From a plasmid, in NCBI RefSeq assembly GCF_054482595.1, contig NZ_JBTHVH010000004.1: a stretch of 64,000 bases of DNA; one strand, 5' to 3'. Within the stretch, counting starts at the first letter, position 1; each line of letters starts with the position of its first letter. This document shows positions 10,984 to 21,502 of the stretch, in pieces. The notes beneath the pieces were generated by a model. The model saw only the letters and a list, made by a program, of their open reading frames with translations. It searched no databases and had not been told where the DNA came from. The position numbers and the translations under genes were made by a program.

Positions 10984-11772
10984 ATGCGCTACAACATCAA
11001 TGCCCGTTTTATCTACGACGCCACCGACGGAACCCTGACGCTGCCGCAAAGCGATGAACCGGACAGCCAGCTATCCCTCACCGCCAGCGCCCTGTTTAAC
11101 TATTTTCTGCGCCATACCGAGATTGTCAGCCGGGAAGATGTTCTGAAAAAAGTCTGGGATGACAATGGATTAACCTCATCCAACAGCAATCTGAATCAGT
11201 ATCTCAGCATGCTGCGGAAGACCTTTCGCCATTACGGCGTCGATAACATCATCGTCACCGTCTCGCGCGGCTATTTGCAGCTTAATCCCGAGGTCATTAT
11301 CGAAGCGCTGGACGACGCGCCGCCGGTTTCACCACAACAGACGCCTGCCGAACCGCCGCCCGTTACGACAACGCCAGACGCACCGCGCTCCGCACATGCT
11401 CGCGGGATGTGCTGGTACATGGCCGGAGCCTGCTTGCTCACCATTGCCCTGCTTCTGGTTGCCTTCAGTCTGGTCGGCATCAGTGAATCCCAGCCTATCG
11501 CGCTGACCCGCCTCAGCCATAGCCAGTGCGAACTGCTGGCCAGCGATGAAATGCGACGTTCGGTCAGTGAAGAGTCCTACGGCAAAAACTTCGATGAGGT
11601 ACGCCAGCGGCTGAATATTGCCTGTAAACCCGGTGAACGTTTTCTTTTCTTCTACGGCGATCGGCTCGAAACCAACGGGCTGGGGCGCGTGTTCCTTGCC
11701 CACTGCGCCATGCATGAAGATAACCCGTTCAGCTATTGCGATAACTACTTTTACTACTCCTGGAAGCCGTAA
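10984..11772 (+). CDS. CadC/ToxR-like membrane-anchored winged-helix regulator
   Basis: It has an N-terminal OmpR/CadC-type wHTH (…LSMLRKTFRHYGVDNIIVTVSRGYLQL), a Pro-rich linker, one TM segment (WYMAGACLLTIALLLVAFSLV) and a C-terminal periplasmic domain. Confidence 0.6.
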   Translation: MRYNINARFIYDATDGTLTLPQSDEPDSQLSLTASALFNYFLRHTEIVSREDVLKKVWDDNGLTSSNSNLNQYLSMLRKTFRHYGVDNIIVTVSRGYLQLNPEVIIEALDDAPPVSPQQTPAEPPPVTTTPDAPRSAHARGMCWYMAGACLLTIALLLVAFSLVGISESQPIALTRLSHSQCELLASDEMRRSVSEESYGKNFDEVRQRLNIACKPGERFLFFYGDRLETNGLGRVFLAHCAMHEDNPFSYCDNYFYYSWKP

Positions 11773-13033: not shown

Positions 13034-14594
<1,561 letters not shown>

Positions 14595-14703: not shown

Positions 14704-14741
14704 CTTAACGTGAGTTTTCGTTCCACTGAGCGTCAGACCCC
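14704..14741. repeat. Tn2/Tn3 right-end 38-bp IR (outer end at 14741)
   Basis: Reverse complement reads GGGGTCTGACGCTCAGTGGAACGAAAACTCACGTTAAG. Confidence 0.9.
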
Positions 14742-15355
14742 GTATATCGCTTGCTGATTACGTGCAGCTTTCCCTTCAGGCGGGATTCATACAGCGGCCA
14801 GCCATCCGTCATCCATATCACCACGTCAAAGGGTGACAGCAGGCTCAGAAGACGCTCCAGTGTGGCCAGAGTGCGTTCACCGAAAACGTGCGCCACAACT
14901 GTCCTCCGTATCCTGTCATACGCGTAAAACAGCCAGCGCTGACGTGATTTAGCACCGACGTAGCCCCACTGTTCGTCCATTTCAGCGCAGACAATCACAT
15001 CACTGCCCGGTTGTATGCGCGAGGTTACCGACTGCGGCCTGAGTTTTTTAAGTGACGTAAAACCGTGTTGAGGCCAACGCCCATAATGCGGGCAGTTGCC
15101 CGGCATCCAACGCCATTCATGGCCATATCAATGATTTTCTGGTGCGTACCGGGTTGAGAAGCGGTGTAAGTGAACTGCAGTTGCCATGTTTTACGGCAGT
15201 GAGAGCAGAGATAGCGCTGGTGTCCGGCAGTGCTTTTGCCGTTACGCACCACCCCGTCAGTAGCTGAACAGGAGGGACAGCTGATAGAAACAGAAGCCAC
15301 TGGAGCACCTCAAAAACACCATCATACACTAAATCAGTAAGTTGGCAGCATCACC
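14742..15355 (-). mobile_element. IS1 variant, truncated (614 bp; lacks ~154 bp of the insB end)
   Basis: It is collinear with IS1 at 5442..6055 but carries scattered substitutions, so it is a different IS1 isoform. It was interrupted by the Tn2 end. Confidence 0.9.
15025..15300 (-). CDS. insA: IS1 InsA (in the truncated copy)
   Basis: 91-aa ORF differing by one residue from the insA at 5725..6000. Confidence 0.85.
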
Positions 15356-15401
15356 CGATGCAGCTTTCGTCAATCATGACAGTTATGAGTTTTCCGGTTA
15401 C

Positions 15402-15725
15402 TTATCCATTTTTGCCAGCGTGTTCCGCAACATCTGTTTTACTGTTTACACAGCACTCTTCACGTAAGAATTCGATGATAGCTTCCAGTATTTCGTATTG
15501 AGAGACACACATGAGCGTTCGACTCTCCCGGTTTTGTGTGACGAGCCCTACTGATACCAGGGCTGAAATATGATGACTTAACGTTGATGAGGGAATGCCA
15601 AGCTGCTTTTGCAATTCACCTACAGGCAAACCTTGTTCTCCAGCTTTTACAAGATGTTTGAATATGAACAAACGGGTCGGGTGACCCAGCTCTTTTAGTG
15701 CTTTAGCTACTTCTTCCAGTTGCAT
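15402..15725 (-). CDS. ArsR/SmtB-family metalloregulator
   Basis: 107 aa containing …LGHPTRLFIFKHLVKAGEQGLPVGELQKQLGIPSSTLSHHISALVSVGLV…, with C-terminal cysteines (EECCVN). Confidence 0.8.
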   Translation of the reverse strand: MQLEEVAKALKELGHPTRLFIFKHLVKAGEQGLPVGELQKQLGIPSSTLSHHISALVSVGLVTQNRESRTLMCVSQYEILEAIIEFLREECCVNSKTDVAEHAGKNG

Positions 15726-15745
15726 GTGACAACCCTCTGTCTAAT

Positions 15746-15803
15746 GATATTTCGATAATACCAGAAATATCTTGACCAGAATTATATTTCGATTATTCTA
15801 GAA
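15746..15803. promoter_or_regulatory. Two tandem ArsR-type operator-like repeats in the divergent promoter region
   Basis: ATATTTCGATAATACCAGAAATAT (15746..15769; 7-bp arms ATATTTC/GAAATAT) is repeated as ATATTTCGATTATTCTAGAAA (15783..15803). Confidence 0.55.
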
Positions 15804-15830
15804 ACGTAGATTTTGTCAAGAGGGTTTAGT

Positions 15831-16964
15831 ATGAATAGTTGGATTTCTATGCTGCAAGATGCCGCAGAGATGTTTTTGTTTTTGGCCGTCGAGCTATCTT
15901 TGCTGTTTATTGTCATCAGTGCCGGTGTGAGCCTGATAAGGCAAAAGGTCCCGGACCATAAAATCCAGCAATTGATAGGGGCGAAAAAAGGAAAAGGCTA
16001 CCTGCTGGCCTCGTTGTTGGGAGCCGTTACCCCTTTCTGTAGTTGCTCAACAATTCCAATGCTACGAGGGTTGTTGTCGGCGAAAGCAGGGTTTGGTCCG
16101 ACACTCACTTTTTTGTTTGTTTCACCGTTGCTTAATCCCATTATCGTGGGGTTAATGTGGGTTACCTTTGGCTGGAAAGTAACTTTGTTGTACGCGATCA
16201 TCGCTGCCGGTGTCTCAGTCCTTGCCAGTATCGTATTGGATTTACTAGGATTTGAACGTCATATTGTTGATCACAAAAACTCAGCATCAAGTGGTTGCAC
16301 CACGAAATGCGATGATTCCGAAGCTTCGGTAAAAACGTCGGCGGGTTCCAGTTGTTGCAGCACTAGCTCGACTCAATTGCCTTTAAAAACGAGTTGCTGT
16401 ACTTCATCAGCGAACCCCATAATTAACTTAAGGACGGTAAAGAACGAGCAGAACGTATCAGCGTGTTGTTCATCAATATCATCTGAACAACCAGCTGTTA
16501 GCTGTTGCAGCAGCGAGAATCTGGGCAATGTGAATCTCACAACGAATACCACCTCTGGCCCAATAAAGTTAGCTATGAAAGATGCCTTACAGCAGTTTAA
16601 GGATGTTCTGCCTTATCTTTTGTTAAGTGTATTAATAGGTTCATTTATTTATGGCTTTATCCCTTCAGAGTGGATTGCAGCTCATGCCGGAGCAGATAAT
16701 CCCTTAGCCATACCGCTGAGTGCAGTTGTTGGTATTCCGTTGTATATCCGCGCAGAGGCAGTGATACCACTTGCATCAGTGCTGATGACTAAAGGAATGG
16801 GCCTGGGGGCATTAATGGCCTTGATAATCGGTAGTGCTGGAGCGAGTTTGACAGAAGTAATACTGCTTAAATCAATGTTCAGAATGCCTATGATAGTCGC
16901 TTTTCTGACAGTAATCCTGGGTATGGCCATACTTATGGGGTATCTGACCCAATTGCTTTTTTAA
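15831..16964 (+). CDS. COG0701/ArsP-like permease with a Cys/Ser-rich central loop
   Basis: It is a polytopic membrane protein with the vicinal-cysteine motif TPFCSCS. The central ~80-aa loop carries four CC dipeptides. The start is taken at MNSWISML, which follows an AGAGGG. Confidence 0.65.
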   Translation: MNSWISMLQDAAEMFLFLAVELSLLFIVISAGVSLIRQKVPDHKIQQLIGAKKGKGYLLASLLGAVTPFCSCSTIPMLRGLLSAKAGFGPTLTFLFVSPLLNPIIVGLMWVTFGWKVTLLYAIIAAGVSVLASIVLDLLGFERHIVDHKNSASSGCTTKCDDSEASVKTSAGSSCCSTSSTQLPLKTSCCTSSANPIINLRTVKNEQNVSACCSSISSEQPAVSCCSSENLGNVNLTTNTTSGPIKLAMKDALQQFKDVLPYLLLSVLIGSFIYGFIPSEWIAAHAGADNPLAIPLSAVVGIPLYIRAEAVIPLASVLMTKGMGLGALMALIIGSAGASLTEVILLKSMFRMPMIVAFLTVILGMAILMGYLTQLLF

Positions 16965-16980
16965 TAATAATAGTAAGGGT

Positions 16981-16988
16981 CTTCTGGT
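16981..16988. repeat. 8-bp target-site duplication of IS26 copy 4 (partner at 17809..17816)
   Basis: cttctggt lies immediately on both sides of the IS. Confidence 0.85.
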
Positions 16989-17808
16989 GGCACTGTTGCA
17001 AATAGTCGGTGGTGATAAACTTATCATCCCCTTTTGCTGATGGAGCTGCACATGAACCCATTCAAAGGCCGGCATTTTCAGCGTGACATCATTCTGTGGG
17101 CCGTACGCTGGTACTGCAAATACGGCATCAGTTACCGTGAGCTGCAGGAGATGCTGGCTGAACGCGGAGTGAATGTCGATCACTCCACGATTTACCGCTG
17201 GGTTCAGCGTTATGCGCCTGAAATGGAAAAACGGCTGCGCTGGTACTGGCGTAACCCTTCCGATCTTTGCCCGTGGCACATGGATGAAACCTACGTGAAG
17301 GTCAATGGCCGCTGGGCGTATCTGTACCGGGCCGTCGACAGCCGGGGCCGCACTGTCGATTTTTATCTCTCCTCCCGTCGTAACAGCAAAGCTGCATACC
17401 GGTTTCTGGGTAAAATCCTCAACAACGTGAAGAAGTGGCAGATCCCGCGATTCATCAACACGGATAAAGCGCCCGCCTATGGTCGCGCGCTTGCTCTGCT
17501 CAAACGCGAAGGCCGGTGCCCGTCTGACGTTGAACACCGACAGATTAAGTACCGGAACAACGTGATTGAATGCGATCATGGCAAACTGAAACGGATAATC
17601 GGCGCCACGCTGGGATTTAAATCCATGAAGACGGCTTACGCCACCATCAAAGGTATTGAGGTGATGCGTGCACTACGCAAAGGCCAGGCCTCAGCATTTT
17701 ATTATGGTGATCCCCTGGGCGAAATGCGCCTGGTAAGCAGAGTTTTTGAAATGTAAGGCCTTTGAATAAGACAAAAGGCTGCCTCATCGCTAACTTTGCA
17801 ACAGTGCC
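16989..17808 (+). mobile_element. IS26 copy 4 (820 bp), the only copy with a direct 8-bp duplication
   Basis: Both IRs are intact and flanked by cttctggt on each side. Confidence 0.97.
17052..17756 (+). CDS. tnpA: IS26 transposase
   Basis: Identical 234-aa Tnp26. Confidence 0.97.
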   Translation: MNPFKGRHFQRDIILWAVRWYCKYGISYRELQEMLAERGVNVDHSTIYRWVQRYAPEMEKRLRWYWRNPSDLCPWHMDETYVKVNGRWAYLYRAVDSRGRTVDFYLSSRRNSKAAYRFLGKILNNVKKWQIPRFINTDKAPAYGRALALLKREGRCPSDVEHRQIKYRNNVIECDHGKLKRIIGATLGFKSMKTAYATIKGIEVMRALRKGQASAFYYGDPLGEMRLVSRVFEM

Positions 17809-17919
17809 CTTCTGGTTTCATGTTGAACAAAGAAGACCCTTTAGCTTCTGTAATCCATTTAATCAGTCTGAATGAAATAGATTATAAATTCTGCTCTGCA
17901 TACCTGCTTAACCAAAGTC

Positions 17920-18324
17920 TCATGATTCTGATTGTCGGTACAGTGCCTGAATGTGGCATATCTGGGAGGTGCTGTACCCTGTTGCATCTGCCGTTTCTTT
18001 CTTGACCTGCCGGTAGTAAAGTACCTTTTGATGCCGTTCCTGAGCGACCTGTTTTCCCTGATATTTACCCAGCGTATGTGCGAGTTCAACTCCCTGCTTT
18101 TGGCGCTGGCGGTCAATTTGCTCGACCAGCAAAATATCATTGCGGTGACTGTCCATCAGTAAGCGACCCAGTTCCGGTCGGTCAAGTTTTGTACCGCTGA
18201 TATTCTCCCGGTAGTAACTGGCTATTTTATGCCCCCGCTCCTAAACAAACTGCTCCAGCATCTCTTTTGCCCGATCGGTGAACTGATCTTCCGTCTATGC
18301 CCTTAAATAAGTGCTGATGAACAT
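17920..18324 (-). pseudogene. tnpR: Serine resolvase (tnpR) pseudogene of a Tn3-family element
   Basis: My translation gives MFISTYLRA*TEDQFTDRAKEMLEQFV*ERGHKIASYYRENISGTKLDRPELGRLLMDSHRNDILLVEQIDR-QRQKQGVELAHTLGKYQGKQ… An amber codon sits at the catalytic Ser position (18295..18297) and a second stop lies at 18241..18243. About 50 aa appear to be missing after EQIDR. Confidence 0.75.
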
Positions 18325-18491
18325 TTTTTCACCGCATTACCGCATTTAGGTTATTGCATTTAATCTATCGCATATAGGCTATGTCGTTCATTGTGTGCCG
18401 TCACGTTTAGATTATGGTGTCAGGGTATACCCTTATGCGATAACCATTTTTGTTAAAAATAACGCATCGAATAATTTATGAGGAAAACTAT
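18325..18491. promoter_or_regulatory. res-like divergent region between tnpR and tnpA
   Basis: The region is AT-rich, with the 9-bp inverted pair TATCGCATA (18366..18374) / TATGCGATA (18434..18442) and several further CGCAT-containing half-sites. Confidence 0.45.
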
Positions 18492-21479
18492 ATGGCAAGG
18501 AGGCAGATTCTTTCTCTGTCGGAAAGAGAATCATTACTGGCATTACCGGACGATGAGTTAACGCTGACCCGAATGGCCTATTTCAGTGAGCATGATCTGG
18601 CGCTTATCAGTGCTCACCGTAAACCCGCCAGCCGTTTTGGTTTTGCCGTCCTTCTTTGCTATCTGAAAAATGTCGGCTTTGCCCCGGATAAAAAAATCTC
18701 TCCCTCTGATGCGCTGCTGAAGCATATCGCCAGCAGGCTAAAGCTTACCGGGGATCTCTGGCCTGCTTACCTTTCCGGCCGGGATACGACCCTGCGTGAG
18801 CATTTAACCGAACTGTACCGCTATCTTGGCGTAAAGGCGTTCACCGGCAAAATACAGCAGGACTGTATTACGCACCTGTTATCGATGGCGACGCGCACCG
18901 ATAAAGGCATTCTCCTAGCCGAAGAGTTACTTGTCTATCTCCGGCAGAACAACGTGATAATCCCCGCGATTGATGTCGTGGAGCGTACCTGTGCTGAAGT
19001 CATGGCAGGCGGCGATAAAATCGTATTTCAGACCCTGAATGCCCCGTTAACTCCGGCTCACAGGGATGCCCTGGATCATTTACTTGAGTCATCAGATAAT
19101 CAGCCTTCCAGGCTGACATGGCTTCTGCAACCGCCGGGTAAAATCAATGGTAAGAACGTGCTGCAACATCTTGATCGGCTCAGCAGCATTGAATCGCTGG
19201 CATTACCTGAAGGTATAGATCGTACCATTCACCAGAACCGGTTGCTGAAACTGGCGCGGGAAGGCCGAAAGATGAGTAGCCGGGATTTGACCCGATTTTC
19301 AGCTGCCCGGCGTCATGCGATCCTGGTGTGCGTGCTGGAAGAAGCCAGAGCCACACTGACAGACGAAGTGATTGAGCTGCATGAGCGAATGCTGAATAGT
19401 CTTTTCAGCAAAGCCAAACGAACACAGGCTGAGCGCCTTCAGCAGACCGGAAAGCTGATCCAGTCAAAACTGAGGCAGTACATCGATGTCGGTCAGGCGC
19501 TGTCTGATGCCCGTGATTCCGGTGGCGATCCCTGGCTCGCAATAGAAAACATACTCCCATGGGCTGAATTTGTCGCCAGTCTGGATGAAACACGCCATCT
19601 CGCCAGAAAAAATAATTTTGACCCGCTGCATATTATTACCGAGAAATACAGCACATTACGGAAATATGCCCCACGCATGTTGTCCGCTTTACAGTTAGTC
19701 GCAACCCCGGCAGCGCAACCTCTGGCTGATGCACTGGTTGTGATCAAGGATATGTACCGGAAGCAGTCACGTAAAGTTCCGGCGGCAGCGCCGCTTGAGT
19801 TTGTCCCTGAAAGCTGGCGCAAGGTGGTGATTACACCTGTGGGTATTGACCGGCAGTACTATGAGTTTTGTGCACTCAGCGAGCTTAAGGGGGCGTTGCG
19901 CTCCGGGGATATCTGGGTTAAAGGCTCGCGCCGCTACAAAAATTTTGATGATTACCTCATACCCGAGAAGGACTTTGACAAACTCACACCGGCACTGCCA
20001 CTGCCCGTATCTGCTGATTATCATGAGTACATTACCAGCCGTATGACCCTGCTTCAGTCCAGACTTGAAGAGGTCAATGCCATGGCTGCCCTTGGTGAAC
20101 TGCCCGATGTGGAAATATCCGACAGGGGCGTAAAAGTCTCTCCGCTGGATAACTGCGTTCCGGCGCAGGTTTCACCGCTGGCAGAGCTGGTTTACAGCAT
20201 GCTACCGCGACCTAAAATCACGGAAATTCTCGATGAGGTAAACAGCTGGACGACGTTTACCCGACATTTTTCGCATATAAAAAATGACATTACCCGTCCC
20301 GATACCCGCTTGCTCCTCACCACCATTCTTGCGGATGGCATCAATCTTGGCCTGACCAAAATGGCAGAAGCCTGCCCCGGGAGCACCAAATCATCACTCG
20401 AAGATATTCAGGCATGGTACATCCGTGACGAAACCTATTCAGCCGCTCTTGCAGAGCTGGTAAATGCGCAGGGGAAAAGACCGTTGGCGGCATTTTGGGG
20501 AGACGGAACAACGTCATCATCAGATGGACAAAATTTCAGAACCGGCAGCTCAGGCCGCTACGCAGGGCAGGTTAACCCGAAATATGGGCAAGAGCCTGGA
20601 CGTCAGTTTTATACCCATATTTCGGATCAATACAGCCCGTTTTACACCTGCATAATCAGTCGGGTCAGGGATTCAACCCATGTTCTCGATGGCTTGCTGT
20701 ACCACGAAAGCGACCTGGAAATCAGGGAACATTACACCGATACCGCTGGTTTCACCGATCATGTCTTTGCCCTGATGCATCTGTTGGGATTTGCGTTCTG
20801 TCCGCGAATCAGGGATCTCCACGACAAAAAACTGTTTATCAAAGGGAAAGCAGAGAAATACCCGGCGCTTCAGTCACTGATATCAACGACCAGCCTGAAT
20901 CTGAAAGAGATCGAAATCCACTGGCGTGAAGTGCTGCGTCTGGCAACCTCGATAAAGCAGGGAACCGTGACGGCATCCCTGATGCTGAAAAAGCTTGCCA
21001 GCTATCCCAAGCAAAACGGACTTGCCAAAGCACTGAGAGAAATTGGCCGCATTGAGCGAACCCTGTTTATGCTCGACTGGTTCCGCGACCCGGCTCTGCG
21101 TCGGCGGGTACAGGCGGGGCTGAATAAAGGCGAAGCCCGTAACGCGCTGGCGCGTGCGGTATTTATGCACCGACTGGGAGAAATCAGGGACAGAAAACCG
21201 GAAAATCAGAGCTATCGCGCCAGTGGACTGACGCTGCTGACGGCTGCCATATCCCTGTGGAATACCGTCTATATGGAAAGAGCGGTCGATGCCCTGAAGC
21301 GTAAAGGGGTGAAGATCAACGAGCAACTGCTGTCGCATTTGTCGCCGTTGGGCTGGGAACACATCAATCTGACAGGTGATTATATCTGGAAAAGCAACCG
21401 GATACCGGCTTCTGGTAAGTTTCGTCGGCTAAGACCAGCTAAAGTCGAAAGGTCAAAAAACAGCCTTAACGTACAATAA
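18492..21479 (+). CDS. tnpA: Tn3-family transposase, full length (995 aa)
   Basis: From [19 protein letters not shown] onward it aligns over its whole length with the Tn21-type TnpA at 59496..62447. The stop lies inside the terminal IR. Confidence 0.9.
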   Translation: MARRQILSLSERESLLALPDDELTLTRMAYFSEHDLALISAHRKPASRFGFAVLLCYLKNVGFAPDKKISPSDALLKHIASRLKLTGDLWPAYLSGRDTTLREHLTELYRYLGVKAFTGKIQQDCITHLLSMATRTDKGILLAEELLVYLRQNNVIIPAIDVVERTCAEVMAGGDKIVFQTLNAPLTPAHRDALDHLLESSDNQPSRLTWLLQPPGKINGKNVLQHLDRLSSIESLALPEGIDRTIHQNRLLKLAREGRKMSSRDLTRFSAARRHAILVCVLEEARATLTDEVIELHERMLNSLFSKAKRTQAERLQQTGKLIQSKLRQYIDVGQALSDARDSGGDPWLAIENILPWAEFVASLDETRHLARKNNFDPLHIITEKYSTLRKYAPRMLSALQLVATPAAQPLADALVVIKDMYRKQSRKVPAAAPLEFVPESWRKVVITPVGIDRQYYEFCALSELKGALRSGDIWVKGSRRYKNFDDYLIPEKDFDKLTPALPLPVSADYHEYITSRMTLLQSRLEEVNAMAALGELPDVEISDRGVKVSPLDNCVPAQVSPLAELVYSMLPRPKITEILDEVNSWTTFTRHFSHIKNDITRPDTRLLLTTILADGINLGLTKMAEACPGSTKSSLEDIQAWYIRDETYSAALAELVNAQGKRPLAAFWGDGTTSSSDGQNFRTGSSGRYAGQVNPKYGQEPGRQFYTHISDQYSPFYTCIISRVRDSTHVLDGLLYHESDLEIREHYTDTAGFTDHVFALMHLLGFAFCPRIRDLHDKKLFIKGKAEKYPALQSLISTTSLNLKEIEIHWREVLRLATSIKQGTVTASLMLKKLASYPKQNGLAKALREIGRIERTLFMLDWFRDPALRRRVQAGLNKGEARNALARAVFMHRLGEIRDRKPENQSYRASGLTLLTAAISLWNTVYMERAVDALKRKGVKINEQLLSHLSPLGWEHINLTGDYIWKSNRIPASGKFRRLRPAKVERSKNSLNVQ

Positions 21480-21502
21480 TTTTCGATATCCAAACTGACC
21501 CC
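21465..21502. repeat. 38-bp terminal IR of the unnamed Tn3-family element (outer end at 21502)
   Basis: Reverse complement reads GGGGTCAGTTTGGATATCGAAAATTATTGTACGTTAAG, which carries the GGGG…ACGnTAAG family signature. Confidence 0.8.

Follow-up and report, generated by a model that had tools for sequence, protein, structure and literature searches.

In permeases of the ArsP family (TC 2.A.119), a hydrophilic loop that varies in size separates two homologous halves (PMC7176098; PMC2963123); a 2010 study distinguished a long type, into which a hydrophilic stretch of ~100 aa is inserted (PMC2963123). A C(S/T)C motif is universal in the ArsPs of ars operons, the form 'tPF-CSC' being that of ArsP cluster 2 (PMC4435449). 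Among the closest described systems, Campylobacter jejuni ArsP (TC 2.A.119.1.1) carries the C(S/T)C motif, is linked to an arsR gene in an ars context and is reported to export MAs(III) and Rox(III) (PMC6205960). On the regulatory side, AfArsR of Acidithiobacillus ferrooxidans represents the type 2 repressors with a three-cysteine As(III) site, and the MAs(III)-selective SpArsR of Shewanella putrefaciens 200 is described as lacking the third C-terminal ligand, C102 (PMC13236881; PMC11868830). A divergent pair of such genes has been annotated as the arsP-arsR of the ars2 cluster of R64 (PMC6449608).

The same gene pair is present in the window analysed here, a stretch of 64,000 nucleotides of plasmid DNA. 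An intact ORF on the minus strand (arsR2, 15402-15725) encodes a 107-aa ArsR/SmtB repressor and diverges from an ORF on the plus strand (15831-16964) encoding a 377-aa ArsP-type permease of family PF03773/TC 2.A.119 that is identical to WP_001089729. Database labels for the two are just "ArsR/SmtB family transcription factor" and "permease". The pair is already known: it belongs to a plasmid arsenic-resistance cluster sequenced long ago, of which it is a stranded fragment. R64 ars2, whose function is given in the literature found by annotation only, contains both genes in the same divergent order with the operators shared, at 96% nucleotide identity and with an identical loop sequence, and the pESI-like plasmid pN55391 is 95% identical to the window pair. 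In R64 and pESI-like plasmids the pair adjoins arsH-sigma-arsD-arsA; compared with these, the window has lost arsH, sigL, arsD and arsA to IS1 and has gained an IS26 copy 24 bp past arsP. Judging from these sequence comparisons, we lean towards the reading that an R64 'ars2'-type cluster left its arsR-arsP end here, cut off by IS1 and IS26 in an IncHI2 multiresistance region, and that the pair would encode a trivalent-(organo)arsenical-inducible exporter with a thiol-capture loop.

Both borders of the pair are formed by insertion sequences. The terminal part of IS1 (15300-15355, minus strand; insA/insB ORFs at 14705-15300), with its inverted repeat ...GGCAGCATCACC ending at 15355, cuts the ars cluster just downstream of arsR2 at the point where arsH-sigL-arsD-arsA were lost, and homology to the R64, pESI and Salmonella clusters begins at 15355-15357. 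None of the remaining ars genes (arsH, arsD, arsA) is present elsewhere in the window. On the other side, IS26 (16989-17808, plus strand) is bounded by an 8-bp duplication, CTTCTGGT, at 16981-16988 and 17809-17816. The ancestral flank continues beyond it (17809-17882, plus strand) and precedes a decayed Tn3-family element, the two spanning 17809-21502 together. This element comprises a tnpR pseudogene (17935-18324, minus strand), tnpA (18450-21479) and, at 21465-21502, a right inverted repeat of 38 bp, whereas the left one is missing in the window; in Salmonella L005 the left inverted repeat of the Tn3-family element occupies 11224-11261, 90 bp downstream of the permease stop. The first-pass annotation had regarded the module as the passenger of a Tn3-family transposon, which is incorrect: it is flanked by IS1 and IS26 and, by the Salmonella arrangement, lies outside the element. 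At its present location the gene pair may have hitch-hiked as a remnant without being selected for its function.

The region between the genes contains two tandem operator-like sites, as had been proposed, though only the first is an exact 7-10-7 inverted repeat. Site 1 (15747-15770) reads ATATTTC-GATAATACCA-GAAATAT, lies within the arsR2 leader just upstream of the permease -35 and is the same in all 7 of the orthologous intergenic regions compared, which range from Aeromonas to E. coli. Site 2 (15784-15807) reads ATATTTC-GATTATTCTA-GAAACGT and carries 2 mismatches; its right arm is degraded here and is GAAATAT in most orthologues. Both sites are conserved across genera over the same range, and they are the sole matches to the pattern ATATTTC-N10-GAAATAT in the 64 kb, against a chance expectation of 0.26. 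A consensus scan alone yielded two candidate promoters, one for the permease gene (15772-15799, plus strand; TTGACC, 16-nt spacer, TATTCT), of which the TTGA core of the -35 is kept in orthologues, and one for arsR2 (15792-15819, minus strand; TTGACA, 16-nt spacer, AATAAT, 11/12 matches). Site 2 overlaps the -10 hexamers of both.

ArsR2 scored 63.2 bits with the NCBIfam ArsR/SmtB metalloregulator model NF033788 (cut-off 55), and the Pfam models PF12840 (55) and PF01022 (31.6), both above their cut-offs, identified a winged-helix ArsR-type domain. Its top match in the PDB was AfArsR (6j05, E = 1.8e-11). The protein contains Cys73 and a vicinal Cys91-Cys92 pair near the C-terminus, and in the alignment with 6j05 the pair, which closes the C-terminal helix, falls in register with the As(III)-binding Cys95/Cys96 of AfArsR. 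No equivalent of AfArsR Cys102 follows Cys92 in the aligned sequences of ArsR2 and its close orthologues; by this alignment, the AfArsR-type three-cysteine As(III) site is incomplete in ArsR2. Among 118 homologues, Cys73 was conserved in all 118, Cys91 in 114 and Cys92 in 113, and 25% of the homologues have an extra cysteine 4-7 residues past the CC pair. AfArsR has a tyrosine at the position of the invariant Cys73. SpArsR, which was not found by name among 120 ArsR2 homologues, resembles ArsR2 in being without C102. MAs(III) selectivity cannot be inferred for ArsR2 from this resemblance, because Cys73 could act as the third ligand and complete a three-coordinate As(III) site.

The assignment of the permease to the ArsP family was confirmed by PF03773 (ArsP_1; E = 6e-53, 180.3 bits against a cut-off of 32.3), with a match spanning residues 16-380 and profile positions 4-293/294. 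Translation likely starts at ATG 15831, the RefSeq start, which is preceded by the Shine-Dalgarno sequence GAGGG; TTG 15813 is less likely. The C(S/T)C motif in the membrane domain that typifies the family is found as TPFCSCS (16029-16049, plus strand; residues 67-73, with Cys70 and Cys72), and T67, P68, F69 and C70 are at least 90% conserved among 98 diverse homologues. This motif had been considered characteristic of organoarsenical permeases; it is a PF03773-wide signature and is common to Cu/Zn exporters. An AF2 model built on the 98 diverse homologues reached a pLDDT of 82.5, compared to 37 with 21 close orthologues, and its helix pattern repeats at residues 2-138 and 244-376, giving the two halves expected of the family. 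The nearest solved folds to the core (pLDDT >90) are transporters of the IT superfamily (DASS/INDY, Pho90, ArsB). We interpret the short helix pairs of the model as two re-entrant hairpins. TPFCSCS sits at the break between helices 55-66 and 71-83, and from the model we infer that it forms the tip of the first hairpin and supplies the translocation-site thiols.

The divergent pair is widespread. In Salmonella it directly follows arsRDABC-arsH, on E. fergusonii and E. coli chromosomes arsRBC, and in a Citrobacter prophage arsRDABC. A copy of ~83% identity stands behind arsRBC in about 45% of complete E. coli genomes, and in PLSDB the pair occurs on 652 plasmids, many of them from poultry and pigs. 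In Aeromonas the two genes form a stand-alone module. Cys-rich-loop loci of other lineages have an Acr3-type neighbour in only 2 of 23 cases, and the link to arsenic is therefore confined to the Enterobacteriaceae; on this distribution it may go back to one or two ancestral linkage events.

Such a history leaves room for a module that is not directed at arsenicals, its adjacency to ars genes being a historical accident. The permease would then be an exporter of soft metals (Cu(I), Zn, Cd, Hg or Ag) with the loop as a metal-binding domain, and the cysteine triad of ArsR2 would bind metal through its thiolates, as CadC or CmtR does. The permease has its best partial NCBIfam match in the SO_0444 Cu/Zn efflux family and its next best in SaoE; like it, both subfamilies belong to the PF03773 superfamily and have the CSC motif, and Cd and Cu induce SO_0444-type genes (PMC10092412). 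The module also stands alone at most Vibrio, Shewanella, Pseudomonas and Halomonas loci, as it does in Aeromonas, and some relatives, such as P0258, have His/Cys-rich loops typical of divalent-metal sites. However, the scores fall far under the curated cut-offs (116 against 300 for SO_0444, NF033936; 87.7 against 325 for SaoE, NF040736), and the gene neighbourhoods of these subfamilies differ from that of the window permease. The pair is repeatedly linked to ars genes, arsH among them, in Salmonella, Escherichia, Citrobacter and the R64/pESI plasmids, and the closest solved relative of ArsR2 senses arsenite and aligns with it at the CC pair. We therefore regard a soft-metal module as unlikely.

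The feature that sets the permease apart from C. jejuni ArsP, as the latter is described, is a long-type insertion of ~100 aa rich in cysteine. This central loop (16263-16559, plus strand; residues 145-243) is Ser/Thr/Cys-rich and predicted to be disordered, with a pLDDT of about 40-50 in the AF2 model. Ser, Thr and Cys make up 45% of the loop, compared to 11% of the remaining permease, and 10 of the 12 permease cysteines fall within it. They form one CxxxC motif (GCTTKC; Cys codons 16296-16298 and 16308-16310, plus strand) and four CC pairs on the same strand: SSCCSTSS (CC codons 16353-16358), TSCCTSS (CC codons 16395-16400), SACCSSIS (CC codons 16464-16469) and VSCCSSEN (CC codons 16503-16508). 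The motifs are all as first described; the length had been put at ~80 aa and is 99. A recent DNA repeat expansion behind the CC motifs was considered and rejected, as Tandem Repeats Finder returned nothing and just a 13-nt similarity coding for SCCS was seen.

To place the loop relative to the membrane, we considered the distribution of positive charge. Among 98 homologues, mean K+R counts were 4.6 for loop 1-2 and 2.6 for loop 7-8, compared to about 0.6 for the 3-4 turn and loop 5-6. This bias fits a hairpin, inverted-repeat topology in which the central loop is probably cytoplasmic. The classical 4+4 parallel topology with eight transmembrane segments, which places the loop on the N-terminal side, was rejected: it does not fit the K+R counts (loop 1-2 at 4.6 against loop 5-6 at 0.6) and is also opposed by the DASS/ArsB-type fold neighbours from the IT superfamily.

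Across 120 orthologues, the loop cysteines are 94-99% conserved, compared to 24% for the remaining loop residues. At least one CC pair was present in all 120 and at least two in 117. The number of loop cysteines is odd in 46 of the 120, so that free thiols are favoured over obligatory disulfides. The loop has a dN/dS of 0.41-0.44 against 0.05 for the core and is therefore not neutral. The fourfold repetition of the CC motif as such is not essential, because natural alleles carry one to four pairs and the pESI allele, of 345 aa, is shorter by 32 loop residues, two CC pairs among them.

Several findings bear on how unusual the loop is. First, CC motifs occurred in the loop of 32 of 95 full-length representatives of 50%-identity clusters, with at least two in 15 and as many as 7-9 in some; together with the ~100-aa insertion published in 2010, this overturns the initial impression that a reiterated-thiol loop is not a known feature of ArsP. 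Second, the loop ranges from 18 to 146 aa across the family and is a linker of about 25-35 aa in many relatives; by these comparisons it is a lineage-variable expansion of a short linker. Third, CC or CxC repeats are found in about a third of diverse family representatives, and the same position holds CxC-rich or His-rich loops in other members, which suggests a hot spot for ligand tuning. Common occurrence was one half of what had been named as grounds for abandoning the original claim, the other being functional characterisation; searches of the literature found none, with nothing relevant on a Cys-rich loop in ArsP or on the pESI arsenic permease and no experiments on this permease or any long-loop ArsP. 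A small Thioredoxin_3 protein often adjoins relatives with Cys-free loops and does not do so for those with Cys-rich loops.

The same variability raises the question of whether the loop evolves fast as a tolerated linker, with cysteines that serve redox or persulfide gating, autoinhibition or buffering, or with no role in transport at all. Close orthologues have loops of 54-102 aa, to be added to the range across the family and the variable number of pairs, and the segment evolves at about eight times the dN/dS of the core and is predicted to be disordered. C. jejuni ArsP is active, and a length of about 315 aa would leave it no space for such a loop, and ArsR2 is weakly similar to the sulfite sensor BigR. 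We nevertheless consider this reading quite unlikely, given that specific cysteines are kept while their neighbours vary, that a dN/dS of 0.4 still indicates constraint and that CC/CxC enrichment has arisen repeatedly at one position in distant members of the family. The similarity to BigR is also slight, ArsR2 scoring 37.8 with the BigR-type sulfite/persulfide sensor model NF040642 against a cut-off of 155.

Thiol capture of soft metal(loid)s by the loop remains the most reasonable reading. In ArsD, vicinal cysteine pairs feed ArsA; ArsD and the metal-binding loops or domains of CDF, ZIP and P1B-ATPase transporters are functional analogues in which reiterated vicinal cysteine pairs or metal-binding motifs lie on a flexible cytoplasmic segment beside a transport site, without sequence homology to the loop; in CDF, ZIP and P1B transporters such loops and domains feed the transporter. 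Unlike in these analogues, the cysteine motif of the window permease is fused into the loop between the repeats. For the arsenical exporter that we favour, the system could work as follows. A dimer of ArsR2 would occupy the two tandem 7-10-7 operators over the back-to-back promoters and repress both genes. Binding of a trivalent arsenical to the Cys91-Cys92 thiolates, possibly together with Cys73 of the partner subunit, would release the repressor, the candidate inducers being methylarsenite and roxarsone or arsanilate in reduced form, with As(III) or Sb(III) less certain. The permease would then export the thiol-reactive species through the Cys70/Cys72 site at the tip of the re-entrant hairpin, while the loop, predicted to be disordered and probably cytoplasmic, would serve as an arm of the permease itself that captures the substrate and hands it on. 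One R-As(III) could be held by each CC pair and would move on to the CSC site by ligand exchange.

A bolder form of this idea, which we think very unlikely, is that the loop is a fused metallochaperone domain that sets the intake of the permease and replaces a separate thiol partner, in line with the Thioredoxin_3 neighbours of Cys-free-loop relatives, and that in ars2-type clusters it is also the surface where ArsD and ArsA feed and energise ArsP. ArsB is the established partner of ArsA, and ArsB is among the fold neighbours of the AF2 model. Castillo and Saier proposed coupling and co-evolution of ArsA and ArsP, citing long-type ArsPs of E. coli, Aeromonas and Yersinia (PMC2963123), and the ars2 cluster of R64/pESI has arsD and arsA without arsB or acr3; still, a relay from ArsD through ArsA and the cytoplasmic Cys loop, as docking and metalloid-transfer surface, to the CSC site, with the permease half alone surviving here, is highly doubtful, as arsA is absent near most orthologues (the chromosomes of E. 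fergusonii and E. coli carry arsRBC alone, and there is none in Aeromonas), a complete arsA-arsB-arsC set lies next door in R64, and there is no evidence of an interaction. If the loop did act as a fused chaperone coupled to ArsA, there would be a second, ArsB-independent, ATP-driven arsenical pump in about 45% of E. coli genomes and on hundreds of plasmids associated with livestock.

The module is thus a correctly described, already catalogued remnant, and its one unusual feature, the loop, is common in the family. If the export of trivalent organoarsenicals is borne out, the module would connect arsenicals used in feed, roxarsone and arsanilic acid for example, with the co-selection of multiresistance plasmids, and the natural loop alleles, with one to four cysteine pairs, would offer a means of probing how a disordered thiol-rich arm feeds a transporter.

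The module comprises two intact, divergently oriented genes: arsR2 (15402-15725, - strand), which encodes an ArsR/SmtB-type regulator of 107 aa, and an arsP-type permease gene (15831-16964, + strand) of 377 aa. For the permease, ATG 15831, which has GAGGG upstream and matches the RefSeq start, is the most likely start codon; TTG 15813 is less likely. Profile searches matched the permease to Pfam ArsP_1 (PF03773, E 6e-53) and the regulator to Pfam HTH_20/HTH_5, and the regulator also passed an NCBIfam metalloregulator model (63.2 bits vs a cut-off of 55). We consider an arsenical-related ArsR-ArsP module to be the probable identity of this pair. That it is instead a soft-metal exporter is rather unlikely: the permease fell far below the NCBIfam cut-off for the SO_0444 Cu/Zn-efflux equivalog (116 vs 300), as it did for SaoE (88 vs 325), though the CSC motif within TPFCSCS (residues 67-73) lacks the specificity to organoarsenical permeases that the first-pass annotation had presumed.

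The four vicinal cysteine (CC) pairs and GCTTKC originally described between the permease halves are all present and hold 10 of its 12 cysteines. The segment containing them spans residues 145-243 (nt 16263-16559), not about 80 aa, and is 45% Ser+Thr+Cys, compared to 11% elsewhere in the permease. Repeat analysis of the DNA led us to reject a recent DNA repeat as the source of the CC motifs. Among 120 orthologues at >=65% identity, the membrane core was 88% conserved, compared to 24% at non-cysteine loop positions, while Cys156, Cys189, Cys225 and Cys226 were 94-99% conserved. Loops ranged from 54 to 102 aa, and the pESI allele lacks a 32-residue segment that includes the first CC pair of the window permease. 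Between 377-aa alleles, dN/dS was 0.41-0.44 in the loop and about 0.05 in the core, with all ten loop cysteines retained. Compared to plasmid R64 (L094:8474-9607), the window gene (15831-16964) has identical loop segments (dS = 0) but membrane-core codons at dS 0.21; the allele is a mosaic, which implies recombination within the permease gene.

In a wider set, 50%-identity clusters were represented by 95 full-length proteins with 30-56% identity to the query; of these, 32 carried at least one loop CC, 15 had two or more, and 20 had at least two CC or CxC motifs; another 32 had no loop cysteine and loops of merely about 20-35 aa. At this position, single relatives had as many as 7-9 CC pairs, or else CxC repeats or His-rich stretches. 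Judged from this survey and the cysteine conservation, a short linker has truly been expanded to give the loop, which is constrained at its cysteines and common in the family. The long-loop ArsP type has already been described, in a clustering that cites E. coli, Aeromonas and Yersinia homologues and leaves the loop cysteines undiscussed (PMC2963123). The literature searched yielded no functional study of the loop. By analogy to the vicinal cysteine pairs of ArsD and the metal-binding loops of other transporters, which are established, the loop may serve substrate capture, a role to which we give slightly less than an even chance. A regulatory or redox role, or none, is distinctly unlikely. 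The loop has an odd cysteine count in 46 of the 120 orthologues and at least one CC pair in all of them (two or more in 117, four in only 14).

In the AF2 prediction from a deep alignment, the core was confident (mean pLDDT 82.5, pTM 0.78) and the loop, at a pLDDT of about 40-50 over roughly residues 150-240, came out disordered. In the model, each half opens with a long and then a short helix, continues with two 12-13-residue helices separated by a break at a conserved motif (TPFC in half one, YIR in half two), and closes with a broken helix and one last helix. Read as hairpins, segments 55-83 and 293-320 would give an inverted-repeat topology in which the central loop shares a side with loops 1-2 and 7-8, opposite the 3-4 turn and loop 5-6. 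In 98 homologues, Lys+Arg counts agreed with this model (4.55 and 2.57 for loops 1-2 and 7-8; 0.55 and 0.60 for the 3-4 turn and loop 5-6) and contradicted a plain eight-helix model. Together these suggest that the central loop is cytoplasmic, in agreement with its many unpaired cysteines.

The module is already known, having been in databases since R64 was sequenced and named arsP-arsR in print, and its carriers number hundreds of plasmids and thousands of E. coli genomes. Over 1.67 kb the module matches IncHI2 plasmids such as E. coli pTB-nb4 at 100% identity, and this segment has matches in 652 PLSDB plasmids, mostly from Escherichia and Salmonella and many from chicken, duck and pig. The module is 96% identical to IncI1 plasmid R64, in which the pair adjoins arsH, a sigma-70 gene, arsD and arsA (the ars2 cluster), an arrangement shared by a pESI-like Salmonella Infantis plasmid. 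A pair about 83% identical was found in 2,426 complete E. coli genomes out of 5,426, on the chromosome in nearly all cases; it sits directly past arsRBC, with arsC on one side and slp on the other. In Salmonella, E. fergusonii and a Citrobacter prophage it likewise follows arsRBC or arsRDABC(-arsH). The Aeromonas pair stands alone without ars neighbours. A role for the loop in coupling ArsP with ArsA, within ars2-type clusters, is very unlikely.

Among 80 family loci on one-genome-per-species contigs, the 23 with Cys-rich loops usually had an ArsR2-type neighbour (16 matches) and rarely ars genes (2 Acr3-type); Thioredoxin_3 (PF13192) was absent from their top neighbour families. A small Thioredoxin_3 protein was commoner beside the about 28 Cys-free-loop loci (8 matches), which also had HTH_5 regulators, two LMW-phosphatase-type ArsC and one ArsB. 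What is conserved is therefore the regulator-permease unit, and by gene neighbourhood the arsenic linkage is strong in Enterobacteriaceae only. These patterns hint that the loop could substitute for a separate thiol partner. One Salmonella ars island holds both kinds: a 333-aa paralogue accompanied by Thioredoxin_3 (L006:1913-3159) and by an ECF sigma factor (L006:3357-3899), and a 377-aa long-loop copy. A sigma-70/ECF-type gene, 'sigL', also lies between arsH and arsD in ars2 (L094:6681-7226; L003:6681-7226); it is an unusual ars-operon component, and we know of no role assigned to it.

In the window the ars cluster is cut on both sides. An IS1 end at 15355 accounts for the absence of arsH, sigL, arsD and arsA, and no other ars genes were found in the 64 kb. 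IS26 (16989-17808) lies 24 bp past the permease stop, flanked by an 8-bp duplication, CTTCTGGT; beyond it the ancestral flank resumes for 74 bp, followed by a decayed Tn3-family element with a tnpR pseudogene (17935-18324), tnpA (18450-21479) and, as the only terminal repeat kept, the right 38-bp inverted repeat (21465-21502). In the intact arrangement on a Salmonella chromosome, the left inverted repeat is located 90 bp past the permease stop; the module therefore adjoins the transposon and is not its passenger. Apart from this claim, the loop length and the motif specificity, the first-pass annotation was accurate. The decayed element (17809-21502) is 92.8% identical to the intact Salmonella transposon (L005:11224-19095), whose cargo is a TauE/SafE sulfite-exporter gene and a 123-aa ORF; R64 likewise has TauE and a wHTH gene adjoining ars2. 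Elsewhere, a blaTEM frame following an IS26 copy (13079-13801) opens at an internal GTG (245 aa, 13857-14594), which suggests 5' truncation, and IS1 lies directly downstream.

The regulator carries Cys73 and the expected CC pair, Cys91-Cys92. Its closest solved structure is the arsenite sensor AfArsR (6j05, E 1.8e-11), whose As(III) ligands Cys95-Cys96 align with the CC pair; AfArsR Cys102, however, has no counterpart, and AfArsR has Tyr in place of Cys73. According to secondary accounts, SpArsR of Shewanella putrefaciens has exactly the two-cysteine arrangement of the window regulator and responds to methylarsenite, not arsenite (PMC13236881, PMC11868830). Cys73 was kept in 118 of 118 homologues (Cys91 in 114, Cys92 in 113). 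Its alignment position probably puts it close to where the C-terminal helix begins (the N-terminal end), from which it might reach the CC pair of the partner subunit and complete a three-coordinate site; with this possible third ligand, the regulator's selectivity cannot be called. About a quarter of ArsR2 homologues, including Shewanella benthica, S. atlantica, a Ferrimonas MAG and a Vibrionales isolate, have an extra Cys 4-7 residues past the pair, restoring an AfArsR-like C95/C96/C102 triad that enterobacterial and Aeromonas proteins lack. The family may therefore comprise As(III)-type as well as MAs(III)-type sensors. No characterisation of this regulator was found in the literature searched.

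Two tandem inverted repeats do occupy the shared promoter: site 1 (15747-15770) is a perfect ATATTTC-N10-GAAATAT and site 2 (15784-15807) has two mismatches, its right arm being GAAATAT in most orthologues. The pattern had 2 matches in 64 kb, compared to 0.26 expected. Orthologues from Aeromonas to E. coli show no variation in site 1 and very little in site 2, while adjacent intergenic DNA diverges; by this comparison both are phylogenetic footprints. A consensus scan gave candidate promoters, as pattern matches only, for the permease (TTGACC/TATTCT) and the regulator (TTGACA/AATAAT), predicted to lie back to back with both -10 hexamers within site 2.

We propose a mechanism that, as a whole, we hold to be somewhat better than an even bet. 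ArsR2 on the two operators would repress both genes, and a trivalent arsenical binding Cys91-Cys92, with or without Cys73, would release it. The flexible cytoplasmic loop would capture the substrate on its vicinal thiol pairs and hand it over by ligand exchange, and the permease would export thiol-reactive species through Cys70 and Cys72. The function of the loop and regulator is a worthwhile but modest experimental question.
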